Positions 13,916 through 45,101 of a DNA stretch of 64,000 nucleotides are shown in pieces. The translations under genes and the position numbers were made by a program. The first letter of the stretch is position 1, and each line of letters begins with the position of its first letter. The notes under the pieces were generated by a model that did not search any database, was not told the origin of the DNA, and saw only the letters and a list, made by a program, of their open reading frames with translations. This DNA comes from Candidatus Micrarchaeota archaeon (GTDB taxonomy: Archaea; Micrarchaeota; Micrarchaeia; Anstonellales; Bilamarchaeaceae), in assembly GCA_016212505.1 (NCBI GenBank), contig JACRGB010000003.1, positions 27,561 to 91,560 on the forward strand, in the 5' to 3' direction.

Positions 13916-13924
13916 GATAGTCAT

Positions 13925-19124: not shown

Positions 19125-19132
19125 GAATTCGG

Positions 19133-19281
19133 CAGCCACCTGTGCGCGCAGGTGGCTGGCAGCGAACGGAGTTCGCTCAACCGCGACTTGCCCACGCAAG
19201 TTGCGGGCATGGCAAGAAATACCTTGTATTTCTTGACAGTCTTGAACGGATCGCCGTTCAAGGACAGAAAACGAAGTTTTC
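19133..19281. repeat. Tandem cluster of at least 6 short GC-rich hairpins/inverted repeats between pilin-like genes
   Basis: cagccacctg-tgcgcg-caggtggctg (19133-19158); cgaac-gga-gttcg (19163-19175); gcgacttg-cccac-gcaagttgcg (19183-19205); caagaaata-cctt-gtatttcttg (19213-19235); cttgaacgg-atcg-ccgttcaag (19241-19262); gaaaac-gaa-gttttc (19267-19281). Also an imperfect direct repeat ctcaacCgcgacTtg / ctcaacAgcgacCtg. Confidence 0.5.
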
Positions 19282-19341
19282 TCAACAGCGACCTGGCCTC
19301 GAAAGTAGCTGACTTGCGCCTTTTTAGAATTGTTTTTTTGT

Positions 19342-21392: not shown

Positions 21393-21405
21393 GGTTAACT
21401 ATCAC

Positions 21406-26515: not shown

Positions 26516-29500
26516 CTATCTAGATGCACGCAATGCTTTTTCCGCCATAGCTTGGGCATCAGGGAGAATATCAGCCCAGATATTTTGGAAACCGTCTTTG
26601 CCACCTATAGTAAGCAAGTGACTGAATATATCCGTTGCTTCAGGTGCATCAAACACGACACGACCATGCCGATCAGCCATAACATAATCACGCTGACCAT
26701 TTATCGGCATACCGACCATCACCTGCGGAGGGTCTCCCTTTTGGCCGCCCGCATAGTATGCTTCAATTTCTTTTATCGCAGTTGGGGAAAGTGATTGCCC
26801 AGCTCCAACCATCTGGCCATCATTTTTAGCAAAAGCAGTCACCAGGTTGCGTTCAAAATCAGGGGTACTCCCAACTTCAGTATGCCATTTTTTAGCCCCC
26901 TCTTTTATGGAATGGGTTGCTGATTGGGCCACTTCAGAAACGGGGCGGCCAGACAAACGCGCAAGGCTTATAAAAACTGGAGCTAAATCTTTTGAATATT
27001 GGGGGATTAGGTGTTCTTTGGAGGAATAAAGTTCATATCCCCCTCGTGTATTTTTAGTTACCCGAAAATGGCCTGCGGCATCAGTATCTATCCGCCCGAT
27101 TTTGAATATTGCAGACTCTCCCCTAACATCTACAACAGTATAACCTTCACTCTTAAGTAATGCAACCTTTGAAGGAGGCACTTTCAGCAACATACCCTGA
27201 AGGTTTCCAGAATGATTATCCCAGGAACCTCCCATCATGAGTCCAGTGCATGCATAACCAATTTCCTGATGAACTACCTCGGGATGTTCTTTATAAAATT
27301 TGGTTAATTCGGTATTGCCTTTCATTCTAGATAAACTAGCTGCTTCCATAGTTGAAGTTTGAATTGGTTCACCCCCAAGGTTGAGAGTACCGCTAAAGTA
27401 TTTGATATGGTCTATCAAACCCCATTTAACCGCCCCACCCTCCGGAGAGGAGAACGTAAGCGGTTTACTATTTGATTCGCTAACCACTCCGGCAGTTGGA
27501 ACATTTGCTATTTGCCCGGTTTTTGCCCCGAAAGCAGCAGGCCGTAAATCCTCGGCTTTTGCAATAAATGCTCGCTCTTCACCCGAAGGGGCAACTACTT
27601 TTATCTCGTACGCTCCAACCATACCATCATGGCCGATTATCCGAGTAATTTTACTGCCTTCTGGAACTTTGGCAAGGACAGTTTCAGAAAGATTACCGGA
27701 TAATAAAAGAGATCCGATTGTAGAAACCTGCTGATGATAGTTACCCGACCTAGGATCAAAAGAATGAGAGTAGAGTCCTTTTTTCTCTAAATAAGAGCTT
27801 ACATCAGCCACAGCCGCTTCATTGCTCTTTGCATTAAGATAGACATTTTTTAATTCACCTGAAGATAAGCCAAGTGCTTTCTCAGATGCAGGCACTCCCT
27901 TAAGGTTTTCCAAATAAGTTGCAGCCGAGTGTTCTCCGGCAAGAGTTAGAGTTCTGATGCTTTGTTCTTGTTGGGCAGGAGGAGCTGCTAAAAATGACTC
28001 TGCGGATTTTGTGCGTTCTGTGACGGCTGGGGATCTTAATGATGCTCCTAATTTCTGTGCCTCTGAACGCTCTGCGCCAGTGAGTTCGTGCTGCTGCGCA
28101 CGAGGTTCAGCTGGAGTTTCTAATGCCCGAGGCAATTCTTGCACCGGAACTGCACGTTCTTGAGCCGGAGAATGCCCCGTGGCTTTATTAAGTTCAACAA
28201 CCTTTGGCGCAGTCGTCAAGGAGGTGCGTTTCTTTATTTCACTATCAAGACCATTTGCAGCCTTTTCTAATGCAACTGCCAAAAGAGGATTTGTTTTTTG
28301 ACCGCTTTCTTTAGGGGGATTACGCCAGAACTTTGCTTCATCTCGCAAAGAGCCGGCACGCTCGGATAGCTCCCCAACTTCGATTTTAGGGTTATCAATC
28401 AAACGTTGGGTCTGGAGCTTTGCCGTAGCCTCAAGGGTCACGGAGTCATTCTGCAACTGGGGAATATGCCCTTCATATATGGCCAAACCCGCTTCGTTTA
28501 ATGCGAGATTAAATTCTTGGTTTTGCCTTGGAAGTCTTTCGGTTCCGGAAACGTGTTCCCGATAAGATCTGGCGAGATTGCCTGCAGCACGGGCAGTCCG
28601 TTCTGCTTCTCCCACACCCATGCCCGAATTGATCAAACGATCCTTAAGTTCGGAAAATGCACTTTTCTCTGCGAATTTATGTGCCTCTGCTGCGACCTGT
28701 TCTTGAGGAAGAGGTTTTGCGGATTGGTCAGAGGGATGCGCCAATTCGAATTCCGCAGCTCGCCTAACCGTTTCAAATTTTTCATTAATTGCTCTAGCGT
28801 GAACATCAAGTGCACTTGCAAGTTTTACCTGCTGCTCCCGCACAGGTATTGCTTCTGCGCCTTTTCCTAGGGTATAGACAGTACCTTCTGGAGAAACGGA
28901 ACTATCTGAAAATCGCGACCGAAATCTTGTTTCATTACGAGTAAATTCAAAGTTAGGAGTTTTGAATCCATCAAAAAGTGAGACGGGTTGGCTGCTGGTT
29001 TTTTCCTGAGCCACTAAAACATCCGCACTTTGACGCAATTGCTTTGCGTCAGCAGTAAGTTGTGCAGCCCGATCTTCGAGTACTTGCGCCCCTGCAGAAT
29101 CCCCCTGGCGGTTCAATCTTCGCATTTCTGTTAATGCGTCTGTTGCTTGGGCAGTAATATGATCTGCCTGAGCAAGCAATTGTTGCGAACTTGGAACTTC
29201 TGCTTGATGGGCCATAGGCCGTACTGGAGCTGCTGACCTATTCGTCCGTTCAACTGCCAAACGCCTGGAGATGGCTCTGGAAAAATTAATTCCAAATCGG
29301 CCAACTGCACCAACATCAATACCAGCATTTGCATAAACTGGGGTCCGGTCTACGGCCTCGACAAAAGCAGCCCCAAAAACTCTAGCCCCGAATTTTACTT
29401 TATCAAAACCCTTACTCGCTGCTGATTTAGTTTTGTCTTTAGCAATCCGTGCTGCTTCTCCGGCGGTTTCTGCAGCTACGGCCATTCTTCCAACAACCCG

Positions 29501-32137
29501 CTCAGGCATAGCAACTTGAACATTAGGCCCAGTAGTGACTTTTGGGGCAGATTTTCTAGAGTTAACCGTAATTTCTCCGGAAACAACATCTCCTGCATTA
29601 ACTCCTTGAGGCATCCGGCTAGCCATAGAGTTTGGAATTTTACTTTGAGGCAGTTTCAAGGTTGGAATTTCGAAAGTTGATCCGAAGGCAGCAGTGCGCA
29701 CTTTACTGGAAAAACCTTCAATAACAAATGAGCTGGTCCTCCTATAAGAGGATTTAGCCAGATTAAAAGCACTTTTACGTGAATGCCACAAGGGCAGTGC
29801 ATTATAGAGCAAATCAGCCCCGCCACTTGCCCAGTCACCTTGACGGATCTGACTATACGCGCTACCAACTCCTTCTACAGAAAAACCGAGATTGATACCC
29901 GTTTCTGCCACCCTAAATGCCACGCCGGCATGGCCTAAATTAAACGCATTTGCAGATCCTTTGAGAAGCGGGTTAAATCTAAGCCCAACTACGCTAGTGA
30001 TAAGCATGAGTTGGGTTTTCCACGAAACATCCCCGGTAAAGTATTGCTCCCGAGCAGCGCCCCGGAATGCACTTGCAACACCAAAAAATTGGCCGATAAC
30101 CGGAATAAATGCAACTAGCCTCTCGGCCCATTCATTCAACTTATCTGCAACGTGCATTTTATGTTTTAGTTCATCAAATCGGATTTGAAGCTCTTCCCCG
30201 GCCTGATCAGCAAGTGCCTGAGCACGGTAATTCTGCTTAACTCCGCTATAATATCCTATCAGCTTTTTTGATTGGGCAACAATGGCATCTTGGAGCTTGC
30301 CTTCACCAACTGCAAAAACACGGGAACTTGAGGTGCACACGGAAGCTTCAAAGCGGGCCATAACTTCTGCAAGTTTCTGGTTGTTTTTATCAAAACCCTT
30401 CCCTTCCAGATGTTGATCAAGCAAATGCAACGAAGCATCCATAAAAAATCCAAAATTATTTCTCACAGGATCTATTTTCCCGCTCCTATCAAGAAGGGCA
30501 GCTGCAGAAGCATTGTATTGTTCACCCATCGAACGGGTATCTATCCGAAGCATATTCATTGCAGCGGCCTTAGCCCTAACCGCATCCGTGAATGATCGCC
30601 TGACGGTTTCAGACATTCCTCCAGAAAGATAGGAACTTAGGGCAGCATCATAGGATTTTCTCATAGTGTCAAGACTTTCCATACCGCGAAATTCTTTGGT
30701 TTCTTTCCAGTCGCCCTGACGAACTGCCTCGTAATATCCTGAAGCATTCCTGGTTTCATTCATCAAAAAGATCCCGGTAGAGACAAAAGCAACGGCTTCG
30801 TTTCTGGATTTATAAAATTCTGCAATTTTAGCACTGGCTGCAGATAAATCAGAAAGTTTTCCGCTTTTTTTTGCTTTTTCTATTTCACCCTTAAGTTTTG
30901 CAGATTCTGCCTCTACAGATTCTAATCGTGCAATGAATTTTGGGATTTCATACCGAAATGAGTCTCCAAACTGTGAATGTACGAATTTCTTTAGTTCATC
31001 AGTACTGGCCAATTCGCCCAATTGTTTTTCCTGTGCATTTACATATTCGAGTTGTTTTTTTGTTATGAACTCATTGGTTTTTTTATCAAACTCAGGAAGT
31101 AGTTTGTTTACCTTAGCAACATCTCTTTTTTCTATAGCCAATTTCACTTCATCAAGGGATTTTTGAAGCTCGGGGATTTCGCCGTAACTGGCAGATAGTT
31201 GCATATATGCTTCTCTGCGTTGTTCCAGAACAGATTTCGTCGTAGGAATTTTGCCGTCCTTATCTTTCTTGCCAGGCTGTGGCTGCGTAAGGCTAATACA
31301 ATATTTTGCATCCTCAAATTTTTTCATGCCATGTGCAAATGCAGCTTCTGCATTCTGAATATCGCCCTTAAGGTGTAATGAAACTGCTTCTTTTAGGTCG
31401 TCTAGGCCGTCTGATTTTTTTATGCCCTTAATATTTAGGGCATCTTCGTAACTCATAAGGCGGTCAAGTGCAGCATCTGCTTGGGCAAAGATTTGGTGTG
31501 CTGATTGTGGATTTTTTTCTTCTGGTGCAGAATCATAAAGTTTTTTGATTTGTAATGCAGCACTTTTGATGAAGGGGTCAGATGAGGCCAGAAGTTTTGG
31601 AACAGTGGAACGAAAATCACCGAGTGCTTTTGACTGCTCTACTTCATTAACACGGGAATTCATCTGCCCGATAAGTGCCCCTGCAGCGCCTCTTAGACTA
31701 TCATCAACCTTGTTTTGTTTAAACTGTAAAAGTAAATAATCAGTTTGGGACTTAAACTGCTCAAAAAGATTTACAGAGTGATCAGCTGGATCGATTTTGG
31801 CTTTCCCTAAGTCATTCATACGGGTAAGCAACTCCGCAAGTGCAAGGCAAACCTGCCCATTTGCATAACTAACATCGGTTAGGCCTTCTTTTTGAGCGCG
31901 GACAAAAAAAGCATTAGCCCGTTTGCCGAGTTCACTTACGCGCACATCGTCAGATCTCGCATACCCTCTTGCAGAAGCCCTTAATGCGTCAGGAGCACTG
32001 TTCAGCTTAACATCTTGAATATCTTTAATGGCAGTCTCTTGTGCACGGGCAGCAACTGCACCTAATACGGGGGCAAGTGCACTAACTTGTCTTGTCGGGT
32101 CATTTTCCTGAGGGTTGTAGAAGTGGGGCATAGGCAT
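26516..32137 (-). CDS. Giant (1873 aa) signal-less, largely helical protein with a central hydrophobic hairpin, a Gly/Ala-rich region and a C-terminal PI3K/PI4K-like kinase catalytic core; candidate effector/toxin
   Basis: Uninterrupted 5.6-kb ORF. It appears GC-richer than its surroundings. There is no N-terminal signal peptide. The first ~670 residues are K/E/A/Q-rich and coiled-coil-like. Hydrophobic segments lie at residues ~673-693 (LVAFIPVIGQFFGVASAF) and ~708-720 (QLMLITSVVGL). Residues 725-960 are G/A/S-rich. Residues 1524-1691 carry FIAKAEDLRP (Lys motif), GSWDNHSGN (D-x-H-x-x-N catalytic loop) and IDTDAAGHF (DFG-like). The Lys-to-DxH spacing of ~115 aa matches PI3K spacing. Confidence 0.85.
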   Translation of the reverse strand: MPMPHFYNPQENDPTRQVSALAPVLGAVAARAQETAIKDIQDVKLNSAPDALRASARGYARSDDVRVSELGKRANAFFVRAQKEGLTDVSYANGQVCLALAELLTRMNDLGKAKIDPADHSVNLFEQFKSQTDYLLLQFKQNKVDDSLRGAAGALIGQMNSRVNEVEQSKALGDFRSTVPKLLASSDPFIKSAALQIKKLYDSAPEEKNPQSAHQIFAQADAALDRLMSYEDALNIKGIKKSDGLDDLKEAVSLHLKGDIQNAEAAFAHGMKKFEDAKYCISLTQPQPGKKDKDGKIPTTKSVLEQRREAYMQLSASYGEIPELQKSLDEVKLAIEKRDVAKVNKLLPEFDKKTNEFITKKQLEYVNAQEKQLGELASTDELKKFVHSQFGDSFRYEIPKFIARLESVEAESAKLKGEIEKAKKSGKLSDLSAASAKIAEFYKSRNEAVAFVSTGIFLMNETRNASGYYEAVRQGDWKETKEFRGMESLDTMRKSYDAALSSYLSGGMSETVRRSFTDAVRAKAAAMNMLRIDTRSMGEQYNASAAALLDRSGKIDPVRNNFGFFMDASLHLLDQHLEGKGFDKNNQKLAEVMARFEASVCTSSSRVFAVGEGKLQDAIVAQSKKLIGYYSGVKQNYRAQALADQAGEELQIRFDELKHKMHVADKLNEWAERLVAFIPVIGQFFGVASAFRGAAREQYFTGDVSWKTQLMLITSVVGLRFNPLLKGSANAFNLGHAGVAFRVAETGINLGFSVEGVGSAYSQIRQGDWASGGADLLYNALPLWHSRKSAFNLAKSSYRRTSSFVIEGFSSKVRTAAFGSTFEIPTLKLPQSKIPNSMASRMPQGVNAGDVVSGEITVNSRKSAPKVTTGPNVQVAMPERVVGRMAVAAETAGEAARIAKDKTKSAASKGFDKVKFGARVFGAAFVEAVDRTPVYANAGIDVGAVGRFGINFSRAISRRLAVERTNRSAAPVRPMAHQAEVPSSQQLLAQADHITAQATDALTEMRRLNRQGDSAGAQVLEDRAAQLTADAKQLRQSADVLVAQEKTSSQPVSLFDGFKTPNFEFTRNETRFRSRFSDSSVSPEGTVYTLGKGAEAIPVREQQVKLASALDVHARAINEKFETVRRAAEFELAHPSDQSAKPLPQEQVAAEAHKFAEKSAFSELKDRLINSGMGVGEAERTARAAGNLARSYREHVSGTERLPRQNQEFNLALNEAGLAIYEGHIPQLQNDSVTLEATAKLQTQRLIDNPKIEVGELSERAGSLRDEAKFWRNPPKESGQKTNPLLAVALEKAANGLDSEIKKRTSLTTAPKVVELNKATGHSPAQERAVPVQELPRALETPAEPRAQQHELTGAERSEAQKLGASLRSPAVTERTKSAESFLAAPPAQQEQSIRTLTLAGEHSAATYLENLKGVPASEKALGLSSGELKNVYLNAKSNEAAVADVSSYLEKKGLYSHSFDPRSGNYHQQVSTIGSLLLSGNLSETVLAKVPEGSKITRIIGHDGMVGAYEIKVVAPSGEERAFIAKAEDLRPAAFGAKTGQIANVPTAGVVSESNSKPLTFSSPEGGAVKWGLIDHIKYFSGTLNLGGEPIQTSTMEAASLSRMKGNTELTKFYKEHPEVVHQEIGYACTGLMMGGSWDNHSGNLQGMLLKVPPSKVALLKSEGYTVVDVRGESAIFKIGRIDTDAAGHFRVTKNTRGGYELYSSKEHLIPQYSKDLAPVFISLARLSGRPVSEVAQSATHSIKEGAKKWHTEVGSTPDFERNLVTAFAKNDGQMVGAGQSLSPTAIKEIEAYYAGGQKGDPPQVMVGMPINGQRDYVMADRHGRVVFDAPEATDIFSHLLTIGGKDGFQNIWADILPDAQAMAEKALRASR
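27000..27900 (-). other. PI3K/PI4K-like (atypical lipid/protein kinase) catalytic domain within the giant protein
   Basis: Codons 1524-1691 map to ~27065-27568. rc(27541-27580) encodes ERAFIAKAEDLRP. Motifs are described in the parent feature. Confidence 0.4.
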
Positions 32138-32146: not shown

Positions 32147-32422
32147 TCAGGGAGAAGGCAACTCACGACAGAGTTCATCCAAAACGCCAAGACTTTCTGA
32201 AATAAGTTCTAAATCAGTACTATTGCCATAAACATCTCTCCAGTATTCCAGTGCGCTTTTCCATTTTTCAAGCCGTACGAGTTCTTCAGGAGGAGTTTTG
32301 GACTTAAATTTAGGGTTATTTAGGTTTAATGCGATGGATATTGACTTAATACTTTTATCAACTCGGTAGATAGAATTACCGTAAAGTTTGAGCAATTCGG
32401 AATCTAAATTCTGATCTGCCAT
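32147..32422 (-). CDS. Small acidic cytosolic protein, translationally coupled to the giant gene (possible chaperone/adaptor)
   Basis: 91 aa. Its stop lies 10 nt upstream of the giant protein start codon. No TM. Helical and acidic composition. Confidence 0.5.
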   Translation of the reverse strand: MADQNLDSELLKLYGNSIYRVDKSIKSISIALNLNNPKFKSKTPPEELVRLEKWKSALEYWRDVYGNSTDLELISESLGVLDELCRELPSP

Positions 32423-32495
32423 AATTGTGGTATCACAGAACGTAAATAAAAAACCACCTTATGAGTAGGACTCAATGGACCCATAATAAAAAGAC

Positions 32496-33596
32496 CTAGA
32501 TCAGTTTCACCAGTCCCCTTCCTATTTCCGGGATGTTTCCCCCAAATAAGTTCGCTGCGTTAAGGGTGAATGTCATAAATACCACCATTGCGATTAATGG
32601 GAAGAGGCAAATTGCTGAAAGCAGATGGAGGGCAAGATCCGAAAGATGGTAGGTCACCAATTCAGTAAGCTGGCCATAGTTTGCTCTTAATCGGACTACG
32701 GATTCGCTTAAGCTGCCGACGCTGGGGCTCTGGCAGGCATAAGTTGAAAGATCATCTGGAACAGATGGAAGCATGCAGTCGTATTTGAACGAGCTTTCAA
32801 GGGGCGCGGGATTTGGGTTTGCAACAAGCAGAGAGGTCTGCACATGGGGAAGCGACATAGTTGCCACTAGGATATAAGTAAGGGGAAATACGAAATATAT
32901 GCCTACTGAAATTGCCATCATAAATGCGCCGGCACCGCGCACTGGGGGAAAGGCACGGAGTGCAACCCCAACAGAAAAGAAGAAACCAGCATAATATTTG
33001 ATGAAGGTGAAGGTATGGACAATAAGATAATACATGTACATGTAAAATGACATTGATTTTGTTGCGGTTGCAATTCTTTCTGAAAGCCATTTTATACCAA
33101 ATCCCGAGGCCACTTCGGACATGAAAATTTCCATATAAACAGATGAAATGGCCTCCACAGGGATGCTGAGGCCATAAAGGACTTTCATAAAACCGCTAAC
33201 GCATCTTGCCGGGGTTTCCATATAAAGGATCATCCAGTCGATGAGCGTGTTTTGGCTAAATACCACGCCATTCCAGGGAAAATCGTTCGAGTTGAGCTGG
33301 AAGGTAGAAAGATAAAGTGACTTTGCAACAGAACTGTGGAGTCCTGGCAGGGGCGCTCCTTGGGCAAGCAGGGGTTCGCCAACCTGGGCAAGCGCGGCCA
33401 CCATAATCACAATAAGCACGGTGGATACTGCATAAACAAATTCCGTTTTCGCTGTCTGCTCGAGGTTACGTAGGGAAAAGAGCCGGGAAAACATAATCAG
33501 CATGGCAGCAACTACTACTGATAGTGATGCTGCGGCAACCGCAAGCAATTCCCAGCCTGCATAGAAAGACGAACAGAAAAAAGTTGTACAAACCAT
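32496..33596 (-). CDS. Polytopic membrane protein, paralog family member P1 (366 aa)
   Basis: Shares the N-terminal motif (SRLFSLRNLEQTAKTEF), the loop motif ALRAFPPVRGAGAFMMAISVGIYFVFP and the C-terminal ...GNIPEIGRGLVKLI with the five upstream paralogs. Confidence 0.7.
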   Translation of the reverse strand: MVCTTFFCSSFYAGWELLAVAAASLSVVVAAMLIMFSRLFSLRNLEQTAKTEFVYAVSTVLIVIMVAALAQVGEPLLAQGAPLPGLHSSVAKSLYLSTFQLNSNDFPWNGVVFSQNTLIDWMILYMETPARCVSGFMKVLYGLSIPVEAISSVYMEIFMSEVASGFGIKWLSERIATATKSMSFYMYMYYLIVHTFTFIKYYAGFFFSVGVALRAFPPVRGAGAFMMAISVGIYFVFPLTYILVATMSLPHVQTSLLVANPNPAPLESSFKYDCMLPSVPDDLSTYACQSPSVGSLSESVVRLRANYGQLTELVTYHLSDLALHLLSAICLFPLIAMVVFMTFTLNAANLFGGNIPEIGRGLVKLI

Positions 33597-34847
33597 CTAG
33601 ATCATCCTCGTTAATGAACTTATATCTACTTCTTCGCCGAAAATTGCGCTGAACCTCCTTGCAGCTTCAATAAACACAAGGACATTTAGGGCAGGGGCAA
33701 GAAACGCGAATAAAAATGCAAGTGCTACCACGGAAATTGGGATCATTATAATTATTGTAAATGTATCCCCAACAATGGACTGGAGGATGGAGCCAACTCC
33801 GCCATAAGTACCGCTTACAATGTCAGTAATGCCTCCATTGCCAAAACCTTTGGAGAAAAAATCGCTTGCATGCTTCATGAAACCGCCCGGGGTCAGGTCG
33901 CTAAAGAAATTGCGGAGGAAATCTGTCCAGTTAACTAAAGGATTCCCAAGACCGCTTAACATGACACTAAAGGTAAGGACGGTAAGGAGGGGAAATACAA
34001 GGAGGAATGCTGCGGAAATCCCAATCAGGGTCCCTCCAACCCTCCGGGTCGGGGTAAAGCAGCGGAGGAAAATACCTGCTGGCAGATAATAGTGAAGGAA
34101 TGCCTGTAATGAAAATAGGTAAACAAATAGCTGCGCATACATTATGATATATGCAACAGATAATGCAACCGACATATTATACAGCAGTTGTTTTATAGGG
34201 GAGAAAAATCCTGCAAAGGGAGTTGCTACAAGCCCAACGCCAAGAGGCCGGGCATAGGGAGTAACCGAAGCGAACTGGTCTACAATCACATTTAGCAGGT
34301 AGCTCATATCCAGCCAACTGCCGACATAGTATCCACCAAGTTCAAAAAATGCCCCTGCGACCTTATATACTGAATCTCCGGCCACAACACCAGTAAAACC
34401 AGAACCTAGTGGAGTTGCTTTTGGGAAAAAGTCTTCTGGAAGGGAGGATCCCATATCAATATTTGCAAGGACAGCAATTGAGCCCAAAATGATAACTGCA
34501 AGAAAACCGGAAATGACAAGTTCGAGAAGTTCCTGCTTTACGAAATTTATGACCATCTGGTTCCTTAGCAGGGTACCAAAAATATAAAATAATGCAAGAA
34601 GCACTGCTGAAACCATTAAAGCTAAACCCGATGGGGCAACCCAGTCCCACATGCCGGCAAACTGGGTGGAAACTATTGAATCAGCATCAAGCTTGAACAT
34701 TCCTGCAGTTCCCTGCGGGGGGGAGGGGTTTTGGAAAGGCGGGGCCTGCACACAGCCCGAGCTGATAAGAAATAGGAAAATGGCGGCGAGGAGGATGAAT
34801 ATTTTGGTTTTTTTGTTGCCGATCATACGCATAGTAAATCTCCCCAT
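33597..34847 (-). CDS. Polytopic membrane protein, paralog family member P2 (416 aa)
   Basis: Motifs GTLLRNQMVINFVKQELLEL and FLRCFTPTRRVGGTLIGISAAFLLVFP. C-terminus EEVDISSLTRMI. Abuts P1 with no gap. Confidence 0.7.
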   Translation of the reverse strand: MGRFTMRMIGNKKTKIFILLAAIFLFLISSGCVQAPPFQNPSPPQGTAGMFKLDADSIVSTQFAGMWDWVAPSGLALMVSAVLLALFYIFGTLLRNQMVINFVKQELLELVISGFLAVIILGSIAVLANIDMGSSLPEDFFPKATPLGSGFTGVVAGDSVYKVAGAFFELGGYYVGSWLDMSYLLNVIVDQFASVTPYARPLGVGLVATPFAGFFSPIKQLLYNMSVALSVAYIIMYAQLFVYLFSLQAFLHYYLPAGIFLRCFTPTRRVGGTLIGISAAFLLVFPLLTVLTFSVMLSGLGNPLVNWTDFLRNFFSDLTPGGFMKHASDFFSKGFGNGGITDIVSGTYGGVGSILQSIVGDTFTIIIMIPISVVALAFLFAFLAPALNVLVFIEAARRFSAIFGEEVDISSLTRMI

Positions 34848-36110
34848 TCATATAAGTTTTAAGAACCCAAAGAAATTAACATTAACTCCGAAGAACTTTG
34901 CAGTTTCCTTTGCTGCAGTAAGGGTAACGAAAATATTAAAGAACGGCAGCAGTACGGCCATCATGACGATATAGTATACGGACCCCCGCACAAGCTCAAA
35001 GGCCAGTGAAACTATCCCTCCCATGAAGAATGGCACCAGCACGCCGCTCGTAAGCAGCATTGAAATAACCGCAGTCCCAAAGACATTGAAGATCCCGCTG
35101 TTGGTAATGAAGCTGTTTATTGCTTTTTGGGCATCGATGATATTTCCACGCATTAGCTTGTGGACCTCATAGTCAATCAGGAACATGAACGGGTAAACGA
35201 GCGCGAGCGAAAATGCAATTGCGATCAAGGCTTCGCCTGCATTCCGCGTAAAAGGTATTGCACGAAGAAGGATGCCTAGCGGAATGAATAAGCTCCATGT
35301 CCACTTTTTGATTATGCATAGGGTGACAAGGTGGAGCAGCCATTCGCTAATGCCAAGGGAAAGGAACTGCAACGACGTACCGATAACATCAATAAGGGGC
35401 TTGAGTATGGGACCCATGTTAAACGAATACATTGCACGCCAGGTAACGCCAAACCACATTGTAGATGAATAGATCGTATGGACTACGGTGTTGTAAAGAA
35501 GGAGCATGCTGTAGTCGGTTGACATTTCGGTTATCATAACCCGGGTGAACTGTAGCGCGGCATCCATCATATTTGAATTGAAACGTGGATTGCCATAAAT
35601 AGGGTCGGCACTTGCATTCCCTGCACTAAATGAAAACCATAGCCCGCCCATGCCAATTGCCACAAGGATGACCATCACCCTGCGGATGGTGATTGTGGTC
35701 TGGTAAAGCTCATCTTTTGCAAGTGCGATTAATGAGGGCGAACTGAGAAGCTGGCCGAGCATATAAAATGCAGCGATTCCAAAAAAAACTACAAAAAGTG
35801 CAAGAATTGTAGGTGCAATCCAAAGTACATTTACAGTATCAGGAGAAATTGCAGGATTCGGGTTGGGGTTTTGGACTGAGAGGAAAGGATCATCGCAAGA
35901 GCTTCCCTTAAGGGTGTCAAAGAGGCTGTTGATGCCTACTGCGGCAGCTCCGGCGGGTGCCACTGCAGTATTTTTTATGTCATCCCAGCCCTTGTTCATA
36001 TTGTCGACGAATTTTTGGAATGCAGTGCTCCCAGCATTTTGGTCTGGCGGGTCGGCAAATAGGATGGAGGTGGAGAAGATCAGGATCAGGAATATGGGTA
36101 GCACCTTCAT
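34848..36110 (-). CDS. Polytopic membrane protein, paralog family member P3 (420 aa), signal peptide
   Basis: Starts MKVLPIFLILIFSTSILFA. Motifs GQLLSSPSLIALAKDELYQT and LLRAIPFTRNAGEALIAIAFSLALVYP. C-terminus VNVNFFGFLKLI. Abuts P2. Confidence 0.7.
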   Translation of the reverse strand: MKVLPIFLILIFSTSILFADPPDQNAGSTAFQKFVDNMNKGWDDIKNTAVAPAGAAAVGINSLFDTLKGSSCDDPFLSVQNPNPNPAISPDTVNVLWIAPTILALFVVFFGIAAFYMLGQLLSSPSLIALAKDELYQTTITIRRVMVILVAIGMGGLWFSFSAGNASADPIYGNPRFNSNMMDAALQFTRVMITEMSTDYSMLLLYNTVVHTIYSSTMWFGVTWRAMYSFNMGPILKPLIDVIGTSLQFLSLGISEWLLHLVTLCIIKKWTWSLFIPLGILLRAIPFTRNAGEALIAIAFSLALVYPFMFLIDYEVHKLMRGNIIDAQKAINSFITNSGIFNVFGTAVISMLLTSGVLVPFFMGGIVSLAFELVRGSVYYIVMMAVLLPFFNIFVTLTAAKETAKFFGVNVNFFGFLKLI

Positions 36111-36111
36111 A

Positions 36112-37611
36112 TCAAATCAGCCTCGTAAGTCCTGCTATTTCTATATCCCCGCCAAAGGTCATGGAAAGCGAACGTATTGCGGCAATAGTGGAAATTATTG
36201 CAAGCAATGAAAAGAACATTGACCAGAAACTAAGCCTTGCAAGGATATCGAGCGGGCCATTTGGTTCCCAGGAAAAATTAATCCAGCTATCTTGCTTGCT
36301 CGCTTGGGAGAGTTGGCCGAACCAGCTATCCCGGTCGGTAGGATCGAACGCTTTTTCTGCCGCGGCAAGCGCTTTCTGCTGTTCTGCAACTACTGCCGGA
36401 TCCTTGCTGGCAGGATCATCACCTGGGCCTGCATTGAATCTGGGAATTAACTTATTGGTGGCTGGATCATTTTTTTCGATAGTTTCAAGATAGGCCAAAT
36501 CATAGGGATTGACCCCTTCCTTGGCAACACCCGAATACCCTTGTATATTTGCAAGAGTCTGCTGAGCACCCCGGGTGTCGAGCTTATTGCCCCCTCCTAT
36601 TACAGGTACAAAACCCAGTATATACATGGTGTTTGCAATTGGAGGGTCGGGATTGAGTTTGCCAAGAGGATTGGCTTTTACATTTAGGGGAGAAACCCAA
36701 TCATCACGGACATTATCCTTGAGCTGGATCATTACCAGCCCGGCAAAAGCATAGAAGGTCGGATAGATGAAATAGAGGGCAATTGCAATTGCAAGCATAA
36801 GGCCACCAAGGCGCCGGGTAAATGTGAATGTACGCAGAAGGGTCCCGGCAACAAAGAACGAAGGGAATATGGCAAGTGCGATAAAGCGCAGGAAAATTTC
36901 CTGCATCTTAGTGATCATAAGGATTTTCATGGCCCATTCAAATGCCAGAGATTTGACATTATTGCCCATTGTGAAGAATCCCCTCCAGGGGTTGAATGTG
37001 ATGAACCCGGTTTTTTCAAAAATAGTTTCAAAGTTTATAGTAAATTCTGCGGCCATAGAAGTCCAGATATAGTCGATATAGGTATTGAATGCAAAAGTAC
37101 TAGTTTCATCAAACACTTCCCGCAGGTGCCAGATGCCCATACGTACAGAACAGGAGGAAATGCCATTGTAAACAGAATATTGGTTTTCAGCAATATCGTC
37201 CCCGCATATGTCTATACACGCATAGTCACGTATGCCATTGTTTACCAGCGGGATCTGACCTGCACGAAATTGTTGGACGTAAGTTGTAGTTGCAGTAGTT
37301 GCGCCAGGGCAGAGGGTCCCAGGAGAAGGTTGGGGATTATTTCCGATACCCTGGTGCGGCATCAGGAGAATAGCCCCATGCACAACACCATCAACAAGCG
37401 GAAGGCTGGTTATTGCAAAAGAAAGGATTATCGCTGAATAAAATAATTCTGCTAGTTCCATTTTGGCCCATGCCTTTATTTTATCGTTCATGAGCATGCT
37501 GCCGATCATATACACTCCGCCAATTAGGCAAGTAACTATTCCGAATGCAATTCCGGCAAAAGCGAGCCAGTCGCCCCAGAACAATTTTATAGTTGTAAAT
37601 ACATCGACCAT
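36112..37611 (-). CDS. Polytopic membrane protein, paralog family member P4 (499 aa)
   Basis: Motifs GSMLMNDKIKAWAKMELAEL and LLRTFTFTRRLGGLMLAIAIALYFIYP. C-terminus GDIEIAGLTRLI. Confidence 0.7.
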   Translation of the reverse strand: MVDVFTTIKLFWGDWLAFAGIAFGIVTCLIGGVYMIGSMLMNDKIKAWAKMELAELFYSAIILSFAITSLPLVDGVVHGAILLMPHQGIGNNPQPSPGTLCPGATTATTTYVQQFRAGQIPLVNNGIRDYACIDICGDDIAENQYSVYNGISSCSVRMGIWHLREVFDETSTFAFNTYIDYIWTSMAAEFTINFETIFEKTGFITFNPWRGFFTMGNNVKSLAFEWAMKILMITKMQEIFLRFIALAIFPSFFVAGTLLRTFTFTRRLGGLMLAIAIALYFIYPTFYAFAGLVMIQLKDNVRDDWVSPLNVKANPLGKLNPDPPIANTMYILGFVPVIGGGNKLDTRGAQQTLANIQGYSGVAKEGVNPYDLAYLETIEKNDPATNKLIPRFNAGPGDDPASKDPAVVAEQQKALAAAEKAFDPTDRDSWFGQLSQASKQDSWINFSWEPNGPLDILARLSFWSMFFSLLAIISTIAAIRSLSMTFGGDIEIAGLTRLI

Positions 37612-37652
37612 ATTGCATCCTCAGAGGTTTACTCATAAATTCTTCAAAATAC

Positions 37653-39416
37653 CTACATTTTCATCAGTATAAATTTCGTCATCGCATTTATGAATGCTAT
37701 AGTGACCATAATTGAGAGTGCGGGCATAAATAATGATAGAAGGGTAAGTACCGCAAAGTGCCGCATGATTATTGTAAATTCCGGCATGGGCAGGAGCCCC
37801 AGTACCCCTTCTGAGAAAAAATTACCCAGTGACTTTTGCACCGCAGTCCCTTTGGGAAGGTATTCGAATATTTTCCCCGGTGCAGTAGCGGGATTAAAGA
37901 AATAGCCAAATGCACCGTATTTTACCGGCCCGCATATTGAGTAAATTAAGGTGTTGGGGCTTTGGTATCCCGAAGGCCCAAGGTCCTCATACGCTTTCTT
38001 ATCGATCAGATAACCCATCGGAAAAACAATTTGGAAGCCTAATGCAAATGCCATAAGGAATGCACCTGCATCGCGGGTGGGCGGGAAAAAGTGCAGGATA
38101 AGCCCCGCAGGGAGGAAAAAATTACCCATAGTAGAATCTATGAAATAGAGAAGGCTGATTTGCGCAGATAAGCTGCCATAAACAGCTACGAGCCCATAGG
38201 AAAGGACATTGGAAATAGAAACAAAAGTATCGATTCCAGGAAAAACCTTATAGGTACGGGTAAGCACGGATTCTCCGATCCTTCTTGCATAAACGCTGAG
38301 CATGGAAGTGCAGGACTGTATCGAGTAAACATCATATATGCCGTTTAGTACTGGATCAAGTGCCTTCTCTTGCAGGAAATTTATTGCGGCAAGGGAAGGC
38401 GAGTTGGTATGGTAAGCATCATTTGCCCAAGCTGAAACGATCTGGCTGCCTACAACGAAAAGTCCTGCCACAAAGAGGACAAGAAGGAATGAGCGGAAAA
38501 GGTTGGAAAGTTCGACATTGAGGTAGCCCTCCCATTCAGGAACCCGGAAAACTTTTGAAACTATATAAGTCAGGAAAATTATCAGGGAAACAAAAAAGAA
38601 TACGTTGATCATCAGGTCAGCGTAGGGAGAAATGGATGCGGCAGTGCCTATTTTTGTCTGAAGTATCGAATCAAATGCGCCACCTTTAGCTAAAAAGACC
38701 TTGAATACGACGAAATAGACTATTGCTACAATAAAAGTACTTGCAAGGAGATTATTCGCAAATCCGGTTGCCCTGGCCCGGGTTTCTGCGCCAAACATCA
38801 TCCCGGCAGCATAGAAAACCGCTGCAAGAATAGCAAAGACGATTGTCAGGAATGCAAGTGAATTTTCGGATATGGTTTTTAGGTCGCTGAAGATTTTTAA
38901 GAAATCGACGGATGATGGCTCGCCACCGGCATTAAGGCTGGGCTGGATGATCGAGAGGAGGAAGAACATTATGATTATTACTAACGCCGAAACACCAACC
39001 GCAGTAAGCATGCTTTCAGTCCAGGTAGATGCTTTTGCTCTTAAGTCTGCACCAAACATCTGGCCAATAACATAAACTGAAGCCGCTATTACGATCATGG
39101 TGATTAGGAGAATCCCCATGACAGAAAGGGCAAAGGGAAGTAGGGAATTAGGGGAACTGTTAAGGGCGGATAAGGGATCAATTGGTGGATTGGCGGCAAA
39201 TGAAAATGAGGGCAGGAGTAGCGATAGAAATAGCACAAGCAGGAAGAGCGAGAAAGGAGTTTTTATGTTTTTTATTATATTGGAATTTGCAAATTCCAAT
39301 GCGTGGAGAAATTCTTTGGAATTTCTCCTGTAGCGAACCGTGTTCGCTACGGACAAATTTTTGCGAAAATTTGTCCTTGTAGTCTTCGTGAAGTCCATTA
39401 ATAGCACCCTTTTCAT
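37653..39416 (-). CDS. Polytopic membrane protein, paralog family member P5 (587 aa; 5' end doubtful)
   Basis: Motifs GQMFGADLRAKASTWTESML and LILHFFPPTRDAGAFLMAFALGFQIVFP. Lacks the GLTR-type C-terminal tail. Its first ~45 codons are made of four tandem DNA palindromes (see repeat feature). Confidence 0.65.
   Translation of the reverse strand: MKRVLLMDFTKTTRTNFRKNLSVANTVRYRRNSKEFLHALEFANSNIIKNIKTPFSLFLLVLFLSLLLPSFSFAANPPIDPLSALNSSPNSLLPFALSVMGILLITMIVIAASVYVIGQMFGADLRAKASTWTESMLTAVGVSALVIIIMFFLLSIIQPSLNAGGEPSSVDFLKIFSDLKTISENSLAFLTIVFAILAAVFYAAGMMFGAETRARATGFANNLLASTFIVAIVYFVVFKVFLAKGGAFDSILQTKIGTAASISPYADLMINVFFFVSLIIFLTYIVSKVFRVPEWEGYLNVELSNLFRSFLLVLFVAGLFVVGSQIVSAWANDAYHTNSPSLAAINFLQEKALDPVLNGIYDVYSIQSCTSMLSVYARRIGESVLTRTYKVFPGIDTFVSISNVLSYGLVAVYGSLSAQISLLYFIDSTMGNFFLPAGLILHFFPPTRDAGAFLMAFALGFQIVFPMGYLIDKKAYEDLGPSGYQSPNTLIYSICGPVKYGAFGYFFNPATAPGKIFEYLPKGTAVQKSLGNFFSEGVLGLLPMPEFTIIMRHFAVLTLLSLFMPALSIMVTIAFINAMTKFILMKM
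39280..39376. repeat. Four tandem perfect palindromes at the P6/P5 junction, two of them the same motifs found upstream of dnaG
   Basis: TTGGAATTT-gc-AAATTCCAA (39280-39299); GGAGAAATTC-tttg-GAATTTCTCC (39305-39328); TAGCGAAC-cgt-GTTCGCTA (39331-39349); GGACAAATTT-ttgcga-AAATTTGTCC (39351-39376). Confidence 0.55.
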
Positions 39417-40690
39417 ACCACTTTTGTTAAACCGACCAATTCAGCTTCACCGCCAATTAGCATAGAAATGCTGCGGTACATTGTCACGGTGATTATTATT
39501 TCCAGGACAGTGGTGAGTATCACAAGCACAATAAATGGTGAAATGGTCCCAACTTCGTTCAATATGAAGTAATAGAGCCCGGCTGAAGAACTCGTAGGAA
39601 GGAAAGTTGATTTGGACCCAAAGAGGCTGGGGTAAAAATCGCCGGTTGTGCCTACCATAAAGAGCCAGATATTTCTTACAGTTGCAGCCAAAGATCCTCC
39701 TGTATTCCAGGCTGCACGAGCCATATTTTTGAGACTGCAAAGCAGACCAGTAACCCCATCACATCCGAGAGTTGGGGTTTTTGTTGCATCTGCAAGCTTG
39801 TCTGCTTCTTGAAATTCCTTGGTGATCGCATCGGTCCTACTCCCCTCCCTCCATTCAGTTATGAGTTTGGTCCAATAACCCTCATCATGATGAGTTGCAA
39901 GGTAAGATGGAGTTTGCGGGGTGTAAACAAAATCCGCTGGTTTGTACATGGAAAAAATCAGATAATGTGAAAAAATTGTGGCAAAGGGAAGGACAAAATA
40001 CATTGCAAAACAAATTGCGAGGATGCTTGAACCTGTGGTCCGGTAAAAGGGAAATGCACGGAGGATGAGGCCAAAGGGAAGGATAATTAATGGGATTGCG
40101 TCTTTAGTGAAAATGAGTATAAATTCCTTGGCCATTAAAACAGTAACAAGATAACTGATAGTCTCTACGATTATGGTGTGGGCATCACTAAGAAGGGTTA
40201 GTCCGGTAAATGGTGCAAATGAAAATGAGATAATGGCTACTGAGGGTATGGGCGAGCTGACCGGGAAACTGACTGTGGAAAGGAAACCTATCAGGGCTTC
40301 AAAAAGATAAAGGTCAATATACTGGGAGAAAAGCTTTTCTTTTAGGATAGTTAACACGCCAAGGGCAAGGTTGATATGTGCAGAGGTATAAACCTGATTT
40401 GGGTTTGCATTATTTATTACCCCACCAAGCCCTGAAGTACTTGATTGCAGCGCACCCTGGACCAGGGCATTTAAGGTGGTATCGAGGCTAAGCCAAAAGA
40501 AAATGATTACTGCAGAAAAAATTAAAGCAGCCAGTTCTTCCTTTGCAATAGCAGTAATTGAAGGGCTTTGTAAAAAATAAGCCACAAGAAATATTGAGCC
40601 GGTTAACCCCGTGGCAAAACCAAGGGAAACAAATATCATAGACCAGGCTGCTGGCGGTAAAGTTATTGCCAATAGCAGGGGAAGTAGCAT
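39413..40690 (-). CDS. Polytopic membrane protein, paralog family member P6 (425 aa), first gene of the locus
   Basis: Motifs AYFLQSPSITAIAKEELAAL and LILRAFPFYRTTGSSILAICFAMYFVLP. C-terminus GGEAELVGLTKVV. Confidence 0.7.
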   Translation of the reverse strand: MLLPLLLAITLPPAAWSMIFVSLGFATGLTGSIFLVAYFLQSPSITAIAKEELAALIFSAVIIFFWLSLDTTLNALVQGALQSSTSGLGGVINNANPNQVYTSAHINLALGVLTILKEKLFSQYIDLYLFEALIGFLSTVSFPVSSPIPSVAIISFSFAPFTGLTLLSDAHTIIVETISYLVTVLMAKEFILIFTKDAIPLIILPFGLILRAFPFYRTTGSSILAICFAMYFVLPFATIFSHYLIFSMYKPADFVYTPQTPSYLATHHDEGYWTKLITEWREGSRTDAITKEFQEADKLADATKTPTLGCDGVTGLLCSLKNMARAAWNTGGSLAATVRNIWLFMVGTTGDFYPSLFGSKSTFLPTSSSAGLYYFILNEVGTISPFIVLVILTTVLEIIITVTMYRSISMLIGGEAELVGLTKVV

Positions 40691-40741
40691 AAATAAACTA
40701 CTTCAGCACTTTTTATAAAAGCACCTGATATTATTCTATTT

Positions 40742-42106: not shown

Positions 42107-42502
42107 TCAATAGTTTTCCGCAGTAATTCCAGGAATCCTTGAAAAATGCTTTACATTTTCAGTTATTATAACGTTTTCTCCATTGGTTAATGCAATTGCG
42201 GCAATTAGAGCATCAGTTTCATTCACATCTTGGCCTTTTTGTTTAAGTTCTGCAGAGATACGCGCAGCACCATCGGTGCTTGTGGCATCTAATTCAAGTA
42301 TGGTTATTGAATCAAGAAAAGCATAAAAAATTTTAAGTTCTTTCTCTTTTACATCGGATTTTTGAAAATATATTCCAACTAGCACTTCAAAAACATTTAT
42401 TCTCGTAGTAAAAACATCTGAAGAAAGTGTTTTTACCTTACGTAGTGCGCTTTGCTTATTTTTTAAAAAATGAATAATGAAGGTCGTATCAAGAACTACC
42501 AT
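42107..42502 (-). CDS. vapC: PIN-domain toxin VapC
   Basis: 131 aa. MVVLDTTFIIHFL plus C-terminal acidic residues. Overlaps the upstream small gene. Confidence 0.8.
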   Translation of the reverse strand: MVVLDTTFIIHFLKNKQSALRKVKTLSSDVFTTRINVFEVLVGIYFQKSDVKEKELKIFYAFLDSITILELDATSTDGAARISAELKQKGQDVNETDALIAAIALTNGENVIITENVKHFSRIPGITAENY

Positions 42503-42732
42503 TTTAGAGGCACCTTTCTCCAGTTTTTCCTTACTTTCTTTACTACGGTTTCCATTTCTTTTGTCTCTTTTTCAGACATAAAGCTCCATGAGCCTGCAAA
42601 GTCCATAAAGTTTTTTTTACTCTTTTGCGGATGTATGAACTTGTGGATCACCTTACTATAACTTTCGCCAGGCCTTTTAAGGGTGGTAAGTTCCTTGTAA
42701 ACTGCATCAGAAATCATTATTGCATGGGCCAT
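42496..42732 (-). CDS. Putative VapB-type antitoxin
   Basis: ~78 aa if started at the Met at 42732 (MAHAIMISDAVYKELTTLKRPGESYSKVIHKFI...). Overlaps the vapC start by 7 nt. Confidence 0.5.
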   Translation of the reverse strand: MAHAIMISDAVYKELTTLKRPGESYSKVIHKFIHPQKSKKNFMDFAGSWSFMSEKETKEMETVVKKVRKNWRKVPLKW

Positions 42733-42847
42733 CAAGTCACCTATATATACATAGTATATATACATTTAAAATAGTTTCGAAAACAGGAGAACTACTAAAT
42801 TTAGGAGAGATAGAAGTAGATTAATGCTATAAATTAATGAAGCAAAA

Positions 42848-43768
42848 TCAGGGTTTGGTTTTGATTCTAAACGGAGCATCCGGACTGCGCATAAATTCTT
42901 CAAAACCGGTAAGATCTAAATCGGTAATTCTCTTAGGGAGATTGTCTTCGAAGTTTCCTTTACCAAATTTGTCGCCATAATAACGTATTATCTGCTCTGC
43001 CCTCATAATATTCAGCCTAGCCAACCGTCCTGGATCGCATTCAGTTTTATCCACAAAATCCACAAGAAAAAAAGATTCTTTTGGAGGTTTAGCAGAGGGA
43101 TCAAAAGCTTTCCAAAGGGCTGAATCTTTGGGAACTAATACAAAAAGCGTTAATTTGGAGGGATCTTTGGCAACTTCTTCGCTTTTGCGAACTGGGAGTA
43201 CATCTGCGAGAAAATTTTGCCTACCATAAGCGTCAGTATAGCAAGAAATTTCAATTTTTAGCACCCCGAAAGAACAGTTTTGGGCGGCATCGAAAAGGAG
43301 AACTTTTTGTACCATCACCTCAGGTACTATCGGCCAATCGGAAAGATTGCCGGAACTTATTGAAACTTTTGTTACCGCGCCGCCAGTGTTTTCGAATATC
43401 GCTGCGCCAGTAGGGCTCAGCTCGAGTGTTAGGTCCCTATCAACAACACAGATAGACTCAATCGAAGGTGGCTTATCTTTTTGAAGGTCTAATTGTATTG
43501 AAACCGCTCGGCCTTTTTGGCGGAGTGATTGTGAAGGCATCTCAGGGGCCAGGATATGAAATTTGCCCACTTCTCTTTGGGGCGAAGGAGGCAAACCAGT
43601 AGTCTTCCTTGTTGGGCCAGTATAAGATGCTATTGAGTGTTGAAAAGCATCGGATAATCTTGCCATCATATATACTTGGTAAAAACAGTTTATAAATGTT
43701 ACTAAAAATGATGAAAACTGTAATGTGGGGGGTAGTAGCCTAGGGGGCAGCGCCCCCTGGCCCTGCAC
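42848..43768 (-). CDS. Hypothetical protein
   Basis: 306-aa ORF. The start may be an internal Met (MMARLSD...). No recognised motifs. Confidence 0.4.
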   Translation of the reverse strand: MQGQGALPPRLLPPTLQFSSFLVTFINCFYQVYMMARLSDAFQHSIASYTGPTRKTTGLPPSPQREVGKFHILAPEMPSQSLRQKGRAVSIQLDLQKDKPPSIESICVVDRDLTLELSPTGAAIFENTGGAVTKVSISSGNLSDWPIVPEVMVQKVLLFDAAQNCSFGVLKIEISCYTDAYGRQNFLADVLPVRKSEEVAKDPSKLTLFVLVPKDSALWKAFDPSAKPPKESFFLVDFVDKTECDPGRLARLNIMRAEQIIRYYGDKFGKGNFEDNLPKRITDLDLTGFEEFMRSPDAPFRIKTKP

Positions 43769-43880
43769 ACTTGTTCAACCGCTTTTTCATTGCTTGAAGC
43801 TCAAAGGGCCATTACATGTGCAAAGGAATGATGATAAGAACAGATTAAAAATAGGGAAAAGAAGAGAAAAAAAGAAACGA

Positions 43881-45101
43881 CTATCGTTTCTTCTTGCCCA
43901 TGAACATGAATGCCGCACCGCCCACAATAACCACAAGGACGATCAATCCGATTATGATGGGAATAAGAAGATCGGTTTTTGGAGCGGGTTTAGCAACAGG
44001 AGCAGATGGAGCGGATTTTGCCAGCTGGCCTGCAACTGAAGAAACAGATTTGGCAAGGCTCAACGCGGTGGCGTAGTCTCCCTTATTGAATGCAATAACA
44101 GCATCATTTAGTTTTGATTGTAATGAAGAAGTATCCTGGCCTGCTGCTTTTGCTTTTGCAATGTCGCTCCTTGCCTGTGAAATGGCCACTTGGGCGCTTG
44201 ACTGTGCTTCCAGATTAGGGGACGGGTCTTCGGGGGGAGAAAGCGGAACAGGTGTGGGATTAACTGAAGGGGATGAATTGTTTTGCGGAGTAGGTTGGGG
44301 GGTTGGAGCAGGTGTTGGAGTAGGTGTTGGTGATGGAGTCGGGGCAGGTGTTGTTGGTGAAGTTGAGGTATTTGTAGAAGTAGAAGAACTGCTTGATGAA
44401 CTGCCAGAAGAACCAGAAGATGGAGGAGTTATACTCAAAGTAAGTGCAGCAGCACTTATTGTGTTACCGTTAACATCAAAGCTTACTGAACCAGAAGTGG
44501 TTGGAGTTATGGTCCATGAGAGTGAAGAGGAACTTCCACCTGGAATAGAAACTGAACCAGATGTCGAACCACCTGAAATACTAGCTCCGGAAGCACTTAA
44601 AGAATAACTGGCAGTTGCCGTGCTACCACCAGTATTGGTTATAGTAACAGAGTAAGTAACCGACTGGGTTGAAGTTAATGTAGATGATGAAGGGGAGTTT
44701 TTAGAAACTGAGAACTGATCTCCAGCCACAAACTCAATTGCCTGCTGGGTACCAGTTGCAGGGGTGCCAGATGATGGAGTAACTTGAGCATTAAAATTAT
44801 AAGTTCCTGCAGATGAAGCAGTGATAGTAAAAGTTTTAGAATCGCCAGTCTGAACTCCGGAATATTGATACGAAGAAGATGCAGAGGGATCAGTTACGCT
44901 GAGTCCGGAAGTAAGATCATAAAGTTGGAGGGTTGCGCCACTACAATCAGAGTCTCCGCCAACGATTACAGTTACAGATACGGAATTACCAACAGTAGCG
45001 CTTGCAGCAGCAGATATTGAAGAAATGCTGCAAGTTGAAAAAGCCGCTAGAGATAGCAATAACAAACCAAAAAGAAAAACTTTAGTAGACATCATAATCA
45101 C
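43881..45101 (-). CDS. Surface (S-layer anchor-like) protein: signal peptide, Ser/Thr-rich domain, Pro-Thr linker, coiled coil, C-terminal TM anchor
   Basis: 406 aa. Starts MIMMSTKVFLFGLLLLSLAAFS. Linker TPAPTPSPTPTPTPAPTPQPTPQ. C-terminus LLIPIIIGLIVLVVIVGGAAFMFMGKKKR. Overlaps the upstream large surface gene by 4 nt (ATGA). Confidence 0.7.
   Translation of the reverse strand: MIMMSTKVFLFGLLLLSLAAFSTCSISSISAAASATVGNSVSVTVIVGGDSDCSGATLQLYDLTSGLSVTDPSASSSYQYSGVQTGDSKTFTITASSAGTYNFNAQVTPSSGTPATGTQQAIEFVAGDQFSVSKNSPSSSTLTSTQSVTYSVTITNTGGSTATASYSLSASGASISGGSTSGSVSIPGGSSSSLSWTITPTTSGSVSFDVNGNTISAAALTLSITPPSSGSSGSSSSSSSTSTNTSTSPTTPAPTPSPTPTPTPAPTPQPTPQNNSSPSVNPTPVPLSPPEDPSPNLEAQSSAQVAISQARSDIAKAKAAGQDTSSLQSKLNDAVIAFNKGDYATALSLAKSVSSVAGQLAKSAPSAPVAKPAPKTDLLIPIIIGLIVLVVIVGGAAFMFMGKKKR

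Follow-up and report, generated by a model that had tools for sequence, protein, structure and literature searches.

A 64,000-nucleotide stretch of DNA from a Candidatus Micrarchaeota archaeon (assembly GCA_016212505.1, contig JACRGB010000003.1), referred to here as the window, carries six consecutive open reading frames (ORFs) on its minus strand between positions 32496 and 40690 that encode homologous membrane proteins. Judged from sequence comparison, these proteins belong to a family that is ancient, undescribed and apparently specific to its phylum, and the interpretation that we favor, by a modest preference, is that they build one hetero-oligomeric membrane complex, which might serve as a platform in the envelope, as a conduit or as a passive channel. 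The ORF list places the six genes at exactly the coordinates given in a first-pass annotation of the same DNA, and on the source contig the region bears the locus tags HY988_00760 to HY988_00785. The proteins are designated P1 to P6 in the order of transcription; the earlier annotation had numbered them by ascending coordinate, so that its P3 is P4 here and its P5 is P2.

Homology and conserved motifs of the six proteins

The six proteins are homologous. In a multiple alignment they share 18-23% pairwise identity, and the core of one loop, G..L..R..G..P, is invariant. Hidden Markov models (HMMs), each built from about 42 orthologs of one paralog, matched 29 of the 30 paralog pairs with E-values from 1e-5 to 1e-21, so that no model missed more than one of the remaining five paralogs, and comparison of ortholog group with ortholog group by hhalign gave probabilities of 95-99% (E 1e-8 to 6e-22). 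Given that paralog pairs are only 17-21% identical and that hydrophobic helices often yield spurious similarity, as in the noise matches obtained when isolated hairpins of these proteins were scanned against Pfam, the shared motifs could in principle be a compositional artefact of hydrophobic sequence, the ORFs being unrelated or not genes at all. However, the invariant R, G and P sit in the loop and not in the hydrophobic helices; what is conserved are loop positions occupied by Gly, Pro or polar residues, and the motifs are therefore not explained by hydrophobic composition. Orthologs of about 50% identity, moreover, exist for every ORF in dozens of genomes. The artefact reading is refuted by the hhalign and HMM matches, and its chance of being right is negligible.

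Identity amounts to 51-57% within ortholog groups and 17-21% between them, and each of the six groups is monophyletic in a neighbor-joining tree; the duplications are therefore older than the sampled radiation and do not reflect recent amplification. This bears out the earlier statement that simple gene amplification does not account for the cluster, as does the presence of six single copies in fixed order at every sufficiently long related locus. No paralog HMM matched any other ORF of the 64-kb window, and hence no seventh paralog was found there.

All six genes lie on the minus strand. P1 (39413-40690; 425 aa), the first gene of the operon, is about 50% identical to its orthologs across Micrarchaeota and combines the predicted five-transmembrane (5-TM) core of the family with the loop ILRAFPFYRTTG and the tail GLTKVV. 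P2 (37653-39416; 587 aa) has the loop ILHFFPPTRDAG and a signal-like N-terminal segment. P3 (36112-37611; 499 aa), with the loop LLRTFTFTRRLG and the tail GLTRLI, is predicted to have the biggest acidic extracellular loops of the six, while P4 (34848-36110; 420 aa) has a signal peptide, a predicted extracellular domain of about 70 aa, the loop LLRAIPFTRNAG and the tail GFLKLI. P5 (33597-34847; 416 aa) carries the loop FLRCFTPTRRVG and the tail SLTRMI, and P6 (32496-33596; 366 aa), the minimal member, the loop ALRAFPPVRGAG and the tail GLVKLI. Each paralog has its own motif variant, which is conserved inside its ortholog group over about 42 genomes. For the loop, these variants are LRAxPFxRxTG (P1), LRFFPPTRDAG (P2), LRTFTFTRRLG (P3), LRAFPYTRNAG (P4), FRxFTPTRRLG (P5) and LRAFPPTRGAG (P6); for the tail, they are GLTKVV (P1), GLTRLI (P3), SFLKII (P4), SLTRMI (P5) and GLVKLI (P6).

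The first-pass annotation had described a six-member paralogous family with three shared motifs, namely an N-proximal AKxEL segment, a conserved loop and a C-terminal tail, and the family itself is confirmed by the alignments and profiles. The loop is indeed common to all six, although the exact pattern then written for it misses some copies, such as that of P1, where IL stands in place of [LF][LH]. The AKxEL segment had been assigned to every member; in P2 it is degenerate (NVEL), and two additional TM-loop-TM hairpin copies are present instead. The assignment of the tail to five of the six was correct, P2 being the only paralog without it. As for the signal peptide, it is present on the protein for which it had been noticed (P4), but not there alone, because P5 also has a signal-peptide-like N-terminus in the source genome.

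In scans with Pfam, NCBIfam and PHROG, no family matched any of the six proteins, Pfam giving no match even at E ≤ 1. A Pfam scan of 111 diverse members returned nothing significant or recurrent, and nor did PDB sequences yield anything significant when searched with the A1 and A5 profiles. The impression of a new family outside the known Pfam transporter clans is thus upheld by these searches. An exhaustive HMM search collected 2780 representatives of clusters formed at 50% identity, and 1801 of these matched with E ≤ 1e-10. The homologs are all annotated as hypothetical and lack Pfam domains, and all named members, including the most divergent ones checked, are Micrarchaeota, among them Ca. 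Bilamarchaeum and Ca. Gugararchaeum. In the literature, no paper combining Micrarchaeota with VirB6 was found, and the P1-P6 cluster was not found in work on DPANN protein families.

Gene order was followed in four long contigs and 49 species-representative loci (L001-L004 and L006-L054). All loci with enough downstream DNA, about 40 species-level genomes, have a single copy of each gene from P1 to P6, with order and strand unchanged; the cluster usually begins about 80 bp from a divergent gene for aspartyl-tRNA synthetase (AspRS) and is followed by PIN_5. The only locus without a fully intact set of six is L043 (CAVTHI010000008.1, approximately 10001-14000), where P1 is split into 470 and 316 aa and P3 into 279 and 388 aa; these splits could come from sequencing or assembly frameshifts or from pseudogenization. 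Reduced DPANN genomes drop most non-essential genes. That a six-gene operon stays intact, single-copy and order-fixed in several orders of the phylum hence makes an important role in the biology of Micrarchaeota very likely.

Predicted topology and the accessory hairpin module

From the signal peptide of P4 and the pattern of charges, the family is predicted to have an extracellular N-terminus, five TM helices and a cytoplasmic C-terminus. With this topology, the three conserved motifs would be cytoplasmic and the variable, acidic, paralog-specific domains would lie outside. In the ortholog alignments, the TM1-TM2 loop, the TM3-TM4 turn and the C-terminal tail are short, rich in K and R and conserved at 0.64-0.96, and the two long loops have an acidic character and lower conservation, yet contain invariant cysteines; the domains placed outside differ strongly between paralogs and carry paralog-specific conserved residues. 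The common core would accordingly be read as TM1, a short cytoplasmic AKxEL loop, TM2 and a variable acidic extracellular helical domain in its first half, and as a long-helix TM3/TM4 hairpin with the cytoplasmic LRxFPxTRxxG turn, a second variable extracellular domain and TM5 in its second half, ending in a short cytoplasmic tail of the form GGxxExxGLT[KR]LI. A predicted 5-TM core, an LRxFPxTRxxG turn with R..G..P invariant that would face the cytoplasm, and six ortholog groups ordered P1 to P6 were all found, and these features together delimit the proposed family.

AlphaFold2 models of P1 (predicted local distance difference test, pLDDT, 73; predicted template modeling score, pTM, 0.64) and P6 (pLDDT 85.6, pTM 0.82) are both all-helical, with helices of 35-50 residues that exceed the thickness of the bilayer. 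In the P6 model, the chain turns at LRxFPxTRxxG between two long helices (166-214 and 217-252) that make up a hairpin, and the tail is modeled as a short terminal helix beyond the GG break. A Foldseek search against the PDB returned no match with E < 0.5, and the modeled fold class appears to be unrepresented there.

In addition to the core, an accessory module consisting of a signal peptide and a TM hairpin, with the signature Y..GQ.FGAETRAKA, is attached to P2 in most genomes. It is found instead at the N-terminus of P1 in L038, L044, L047 and L051, and on P4 in L049 (13542-15077). In the window, the accessory hairpins of P2 are located N-terminal of the family core, at residues 88-165 (loop GADLRAKA) and 176-250 (loop GAETRARA). 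The family's own TM1-loop-TM2 hairpin, with the loop G(A/S)ETRA(K/R)A, thus recurs as an additional module; in P2 the hairpins are at residues 88-165, 176-250 and 258-332. The architecture of the accessory hairpin, a signal peptide and two TM segments joined by a basic loop, resembles that of a VirB2-type pilin, without a significant Pfam match. When isolated hairpins were scanned against Pfam, they gave sub-threshold hydrophobic noise only (T4SS_pilin with E 0.46 for one hairpin), and identification of the hairpin as a VirB2 pilin was dropped on that account.

A proposed single complex and its alternatives

The six genes are arranged as one operon. The end of P1 overlaps the start of P2 by 4 nt, P4 begins 1 nt past the stop codon of P3, and P4/P5 and P5/P6 abut with a gap of 0; the 41-nt gap between P2 and P3 includes a GAGGA site resembling a ribosome-binding (Shine-Dalgarno-like) sequence. 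Such spacing fits coupled, equimolar expression of the six products. Upstream, the TATA-like box TTTTATAAAA (40711-40720), read from the sequence, is 20 nt from the ATG of P1 and 21 nt from that of the divergent AspRS gene. The box is perfectly palindromic and midway between the two start codons, and we infer that it is a bidirectional archaeal promoter giving leaderless or near-leaderless transcripts of P1 and AspRS. Downstream, the T-run CTTTTTTATT (coding strand; 32484-32493, minus strand), likewise read from the sequence, directly follows the stop codon of P6 and is likely an archaeal oligo-T terminator of the six-gene unit.

Evolutionary rates were compared by a mirror-tree analysis of 31 genomes. 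Distances correlate among the paralogs with r = 0.83-0.91 and between the paralogs and the flanking AspRS and PIN_5 with r = 0.61-0.70, and the partial correlations among the six are 0.65-0.83 when both controls are regressed out. This co-variation is suggestive of one assembly. The shift of the accessory module between subunits is easiest to understand if these are contained in one particle, a hint of the Rosetta-stone type. The earlier proposal that the six are subunits of a hetero-oligomeric assembly thus gains indirect support from 1:1:1:1:1:1 synteny, abutting or overlapping genes, correlated rates and a mobile accessory module, and is somewhat more likely than not. Were it correct, one copy of each paralog would enter a single pseudo-six-fold hetero-oligomer in the cytoplasmic membrane, in which the conserved cytoplasmic elements would form a common inner face for inter-subunit contacts, a shared gate or a docking surface, the helical domains outside the cell, which differ from paralog to paralog, would create an asymmetric outer face, and the accessory module would be part of the entire assembly. 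The cluster does not encode an ATPase, and this, taken together with a cytoplasmic face that is conserved and an outer face that is divergent, makes a self-contained pump less likely than a channel, a conduit or a platform in the envelope. We infer co-assembly, stoichiometry and topology, and the function as channel or platform is a guess.

Several considerations weigh against this interpretation. The topology is based on the positive-inside rule and on a crude hydropathy scan for TM segments, and the limitation of the family to Micrarchaeota on named sequences, most of the 2780 representatives carrying no name. Mirror-tree correlations can be inflated by rate regimes common to membrane proteins and by a non-linear relation to slower control genes. 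Fixed gene order alone also fits six proteins of one pathway that do not form a single particle.

The proteins might also be functionally separate, for example transporters or receptors for different substrates, and be kept together only through shared regulation. Large paralogous membrane families whose members have individual functions are common, and the strongly differing extracellular domains, each with conserved residues of its own, are what such a set would display. On the other hand, separate functions predict lineage-specific loss, gain and reordering, none of which is seen in about 40 strongly reduced genomes; the evolutionary rates of the six follow one another more closely than they follow those of the neighbors, the accessory module shifts from one paralog to another, and the near-identical cytoplasmic tail and loop in five of the six imply a common partner or mutual contacts. 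Functional independence is, given these observations, unlikely.

Another reading takes the six as a highly diverged set of VirB6/TrbL/CedA-type channels, that is, as multiplied VirB6-like inner-membrane subunits that would form the platform or pore of an apparatus translocating DNA or protein, similar to Ced or to conjugation systems, with the accessory hairpin as the remnant of a VirB2-like pilin. In VirB6 of Agrobacterium tumefaciens, the N-terminus is outside and the C-terminus in the cytoplasm, and about five TM helices and a large external loop lie in between; the topology predicted here from charge, hydropathy and the P4 signal peptide, with a large external loop, matches it. Multiplication is familiar among these proteins as well, several TrwI copies being present per Bartonella genome, with VirB6 multiplied in tandem in Bartonella Trw and also in Rickettsiales. 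Furthermore, the N-terminal TM hairpin of the present family also occurs as a separate module, in parallel with the reported homology of the CedA/VirB6 N-terminus to the CedA1/VirB2 pilin (PMC9905601). Because of the parallels in topology and in the separate hairpin, a very remote relationship to VirB6 is retained as a reading, albeit quite an improbable one.

Sequence comparison does not bring the families together: there is no sequence or profile similarity of P1-P6 to VirB6/TrbL (PF04610; TrwI of R388, PDB 7o3v) or to archaeal CedA/TedA. In hhalign, the P1 and P6 ortholog profiles reached probabilities of 0.1-0.3% against an alignment of 38 TrwI sequences, and comparison with TrwI alone also stayed below 1%; none of the 111 members matches PF04610, and one has a sub-threshold T4SS_pilin match. 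The Foldseek search against the PDB was empty, and VirB6 is absent from the top 60 structural matches of the P6 model, the much better of the two, all of which are generic helical hairpins. Neither a VirB4/CedB-like ATPase nor a stand-alone pilin gene was found in the cluster or its flanks, either in the window or at the 49 loci plus four contigs, where the neighbors are AspRS, PIN_5, an RNA ligase, an S49 peptidase and similar genes. VirB6 in R388, moreover, is a homo-pentamer, whereas this cluster comprises six distinct paralogs without accompanying VirB4, VirB2 or other type IV secretion system genes.

Among other known systems, there is an analogy in genetic logic to the mycobacterial Mce systems (MceA-F), in which six tandem, anciently diverged and order-fixed paralogs build what is believed, or has been shown, to be a single hetero-hexamer of the envelope. 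Mce proteins have a single TM segment and an MCE domain (PF02470), which is a beta-barrel, and they work with YrbE permeases and an ATPase; in contrast, P1-P6 are predicted to have five TM helices, are all-helical in the AlphaFold2 models, do not match PF02470 and lack an adjacent permease or ATPase. A further analogy is to the flagellar/type III secretion export gate FliPQR (SctRST), where related helical-hairpin proteins give rise to a pseudo-hexameric, non-closed helical core protruding from the bilayer. With tails on five of its six subunits, the present assembly would, as pure speculation, suit an open geometry of this kind, such as a lock-washer hexamer with five interfaces. P1-P6 nevertheless have no sequence, Pfam or fold match to FliPQR and differ from it in sizes, topology and gene context. 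For T2SSF/PilC/FlaJ (PF00482), there is neither a Pfam nor an NCBIfam match, and no PilB/FlaI-type ATPase is encoded in the cluster.

The genomes of DPANN archaea, such as Micrarchaeota, are tiny, and these organisms rely on physical contact with a host; to our knowledge the proteins of their envelopes and contact structures are almost entirely unknown. P1-P6 could in this setting be a Micrarchaeota-specific hetero-hexameric envelope conduit or docking platform for obligate exchange with host cells, a proposal to which we assign a low probability. Equally doubtful are its two candidate forms, the membrane base of the barrel-like platform of the micrarchaeon ARM-1 and a channel taking up host lipids or metabolites for whose synthesis the reduced genomes are not equipped. 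In ARM-1, this unidentified barrel-like platform receives host nanotubes (PMC11329633). If true, exchange with the host through P1-P6 would represent cell-cell transfer machinery of a new class, lacking homologs among known secretion systems. As a candidate for a membrane machine that defines the lineage, the cluster is open to test, and it would provide a natural example of the transition from homo-oligomer to hetero-oligomer through ancient tandem duplication.

Other features of the window

The neighborhood of the cluster in the window is one of archaeal housekeeping genes, including those for AspRS, a Nob1-like PIN_5, a Pab1020-type RNA ligase, MCM, a DnaG-type primase, DnaK/DnaJ and 5S rRNA. 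Between P6 and PIN_5, which follow each other directly in other genomes, two further ORFs are found on the minus strand, one of 91 aa (32147-32422) and a giant one of 1873 aa (26516-32137). Neither has a homolog in 49 related loci or a match in Pfam, NCBIfam or the PDB. A TATA-like box stands upstream of the 91-aa ORF, after the T-runs that follow P6. These two ORFs are a lineage-specific insertion and, as their flanking signals suggest, probably a separate transcription unit. A link between the giant protein and P1-P6 had been entertained in the first-pass annotation; it finds no support, and the protein was rejected as part of the system because homologs are absent from the 49 loci, Pfam and the PDB gave no match, and its promoter and terminator signals appear to be separate. 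The middle of the giant protein contains hydrophobic segments, and its C-terminal part includes SWDNHSGN ... GRIDTDAAG, which, compared by eye only, resembles a kinase-type pair of DxHxxN and D-x-D/DFG-like motifs.

Three other groups of genes, all on the minus strand, are worth recording. At 18165-22056 there is a run of small and medium ORFs, the first of which (18165-18680) has a weak DUF7287/DUF7288 match below the Pfam gathering threshold, the others having no Pfam match; they may be an archaeal type-IV-pilin-like surface-structure cluster, and no ATPase is seen beside them. ORFs of 306, 406 and 1508 aa at 42848-49624, essentially without Pfam annotation apart from a sub-threshold MG2 (alpha-2-macroglobulin-like) match in the largest, possibly encode large surface proteins. 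Just beyond AspRS, at 42107-42765, a pair of genes for 131 and 89 aa, in which the stop codon of one overlaps the start codon of the other, looks like a putative toxin-antitoxin module of a VapC/PIN-like protein and its antitoxin.

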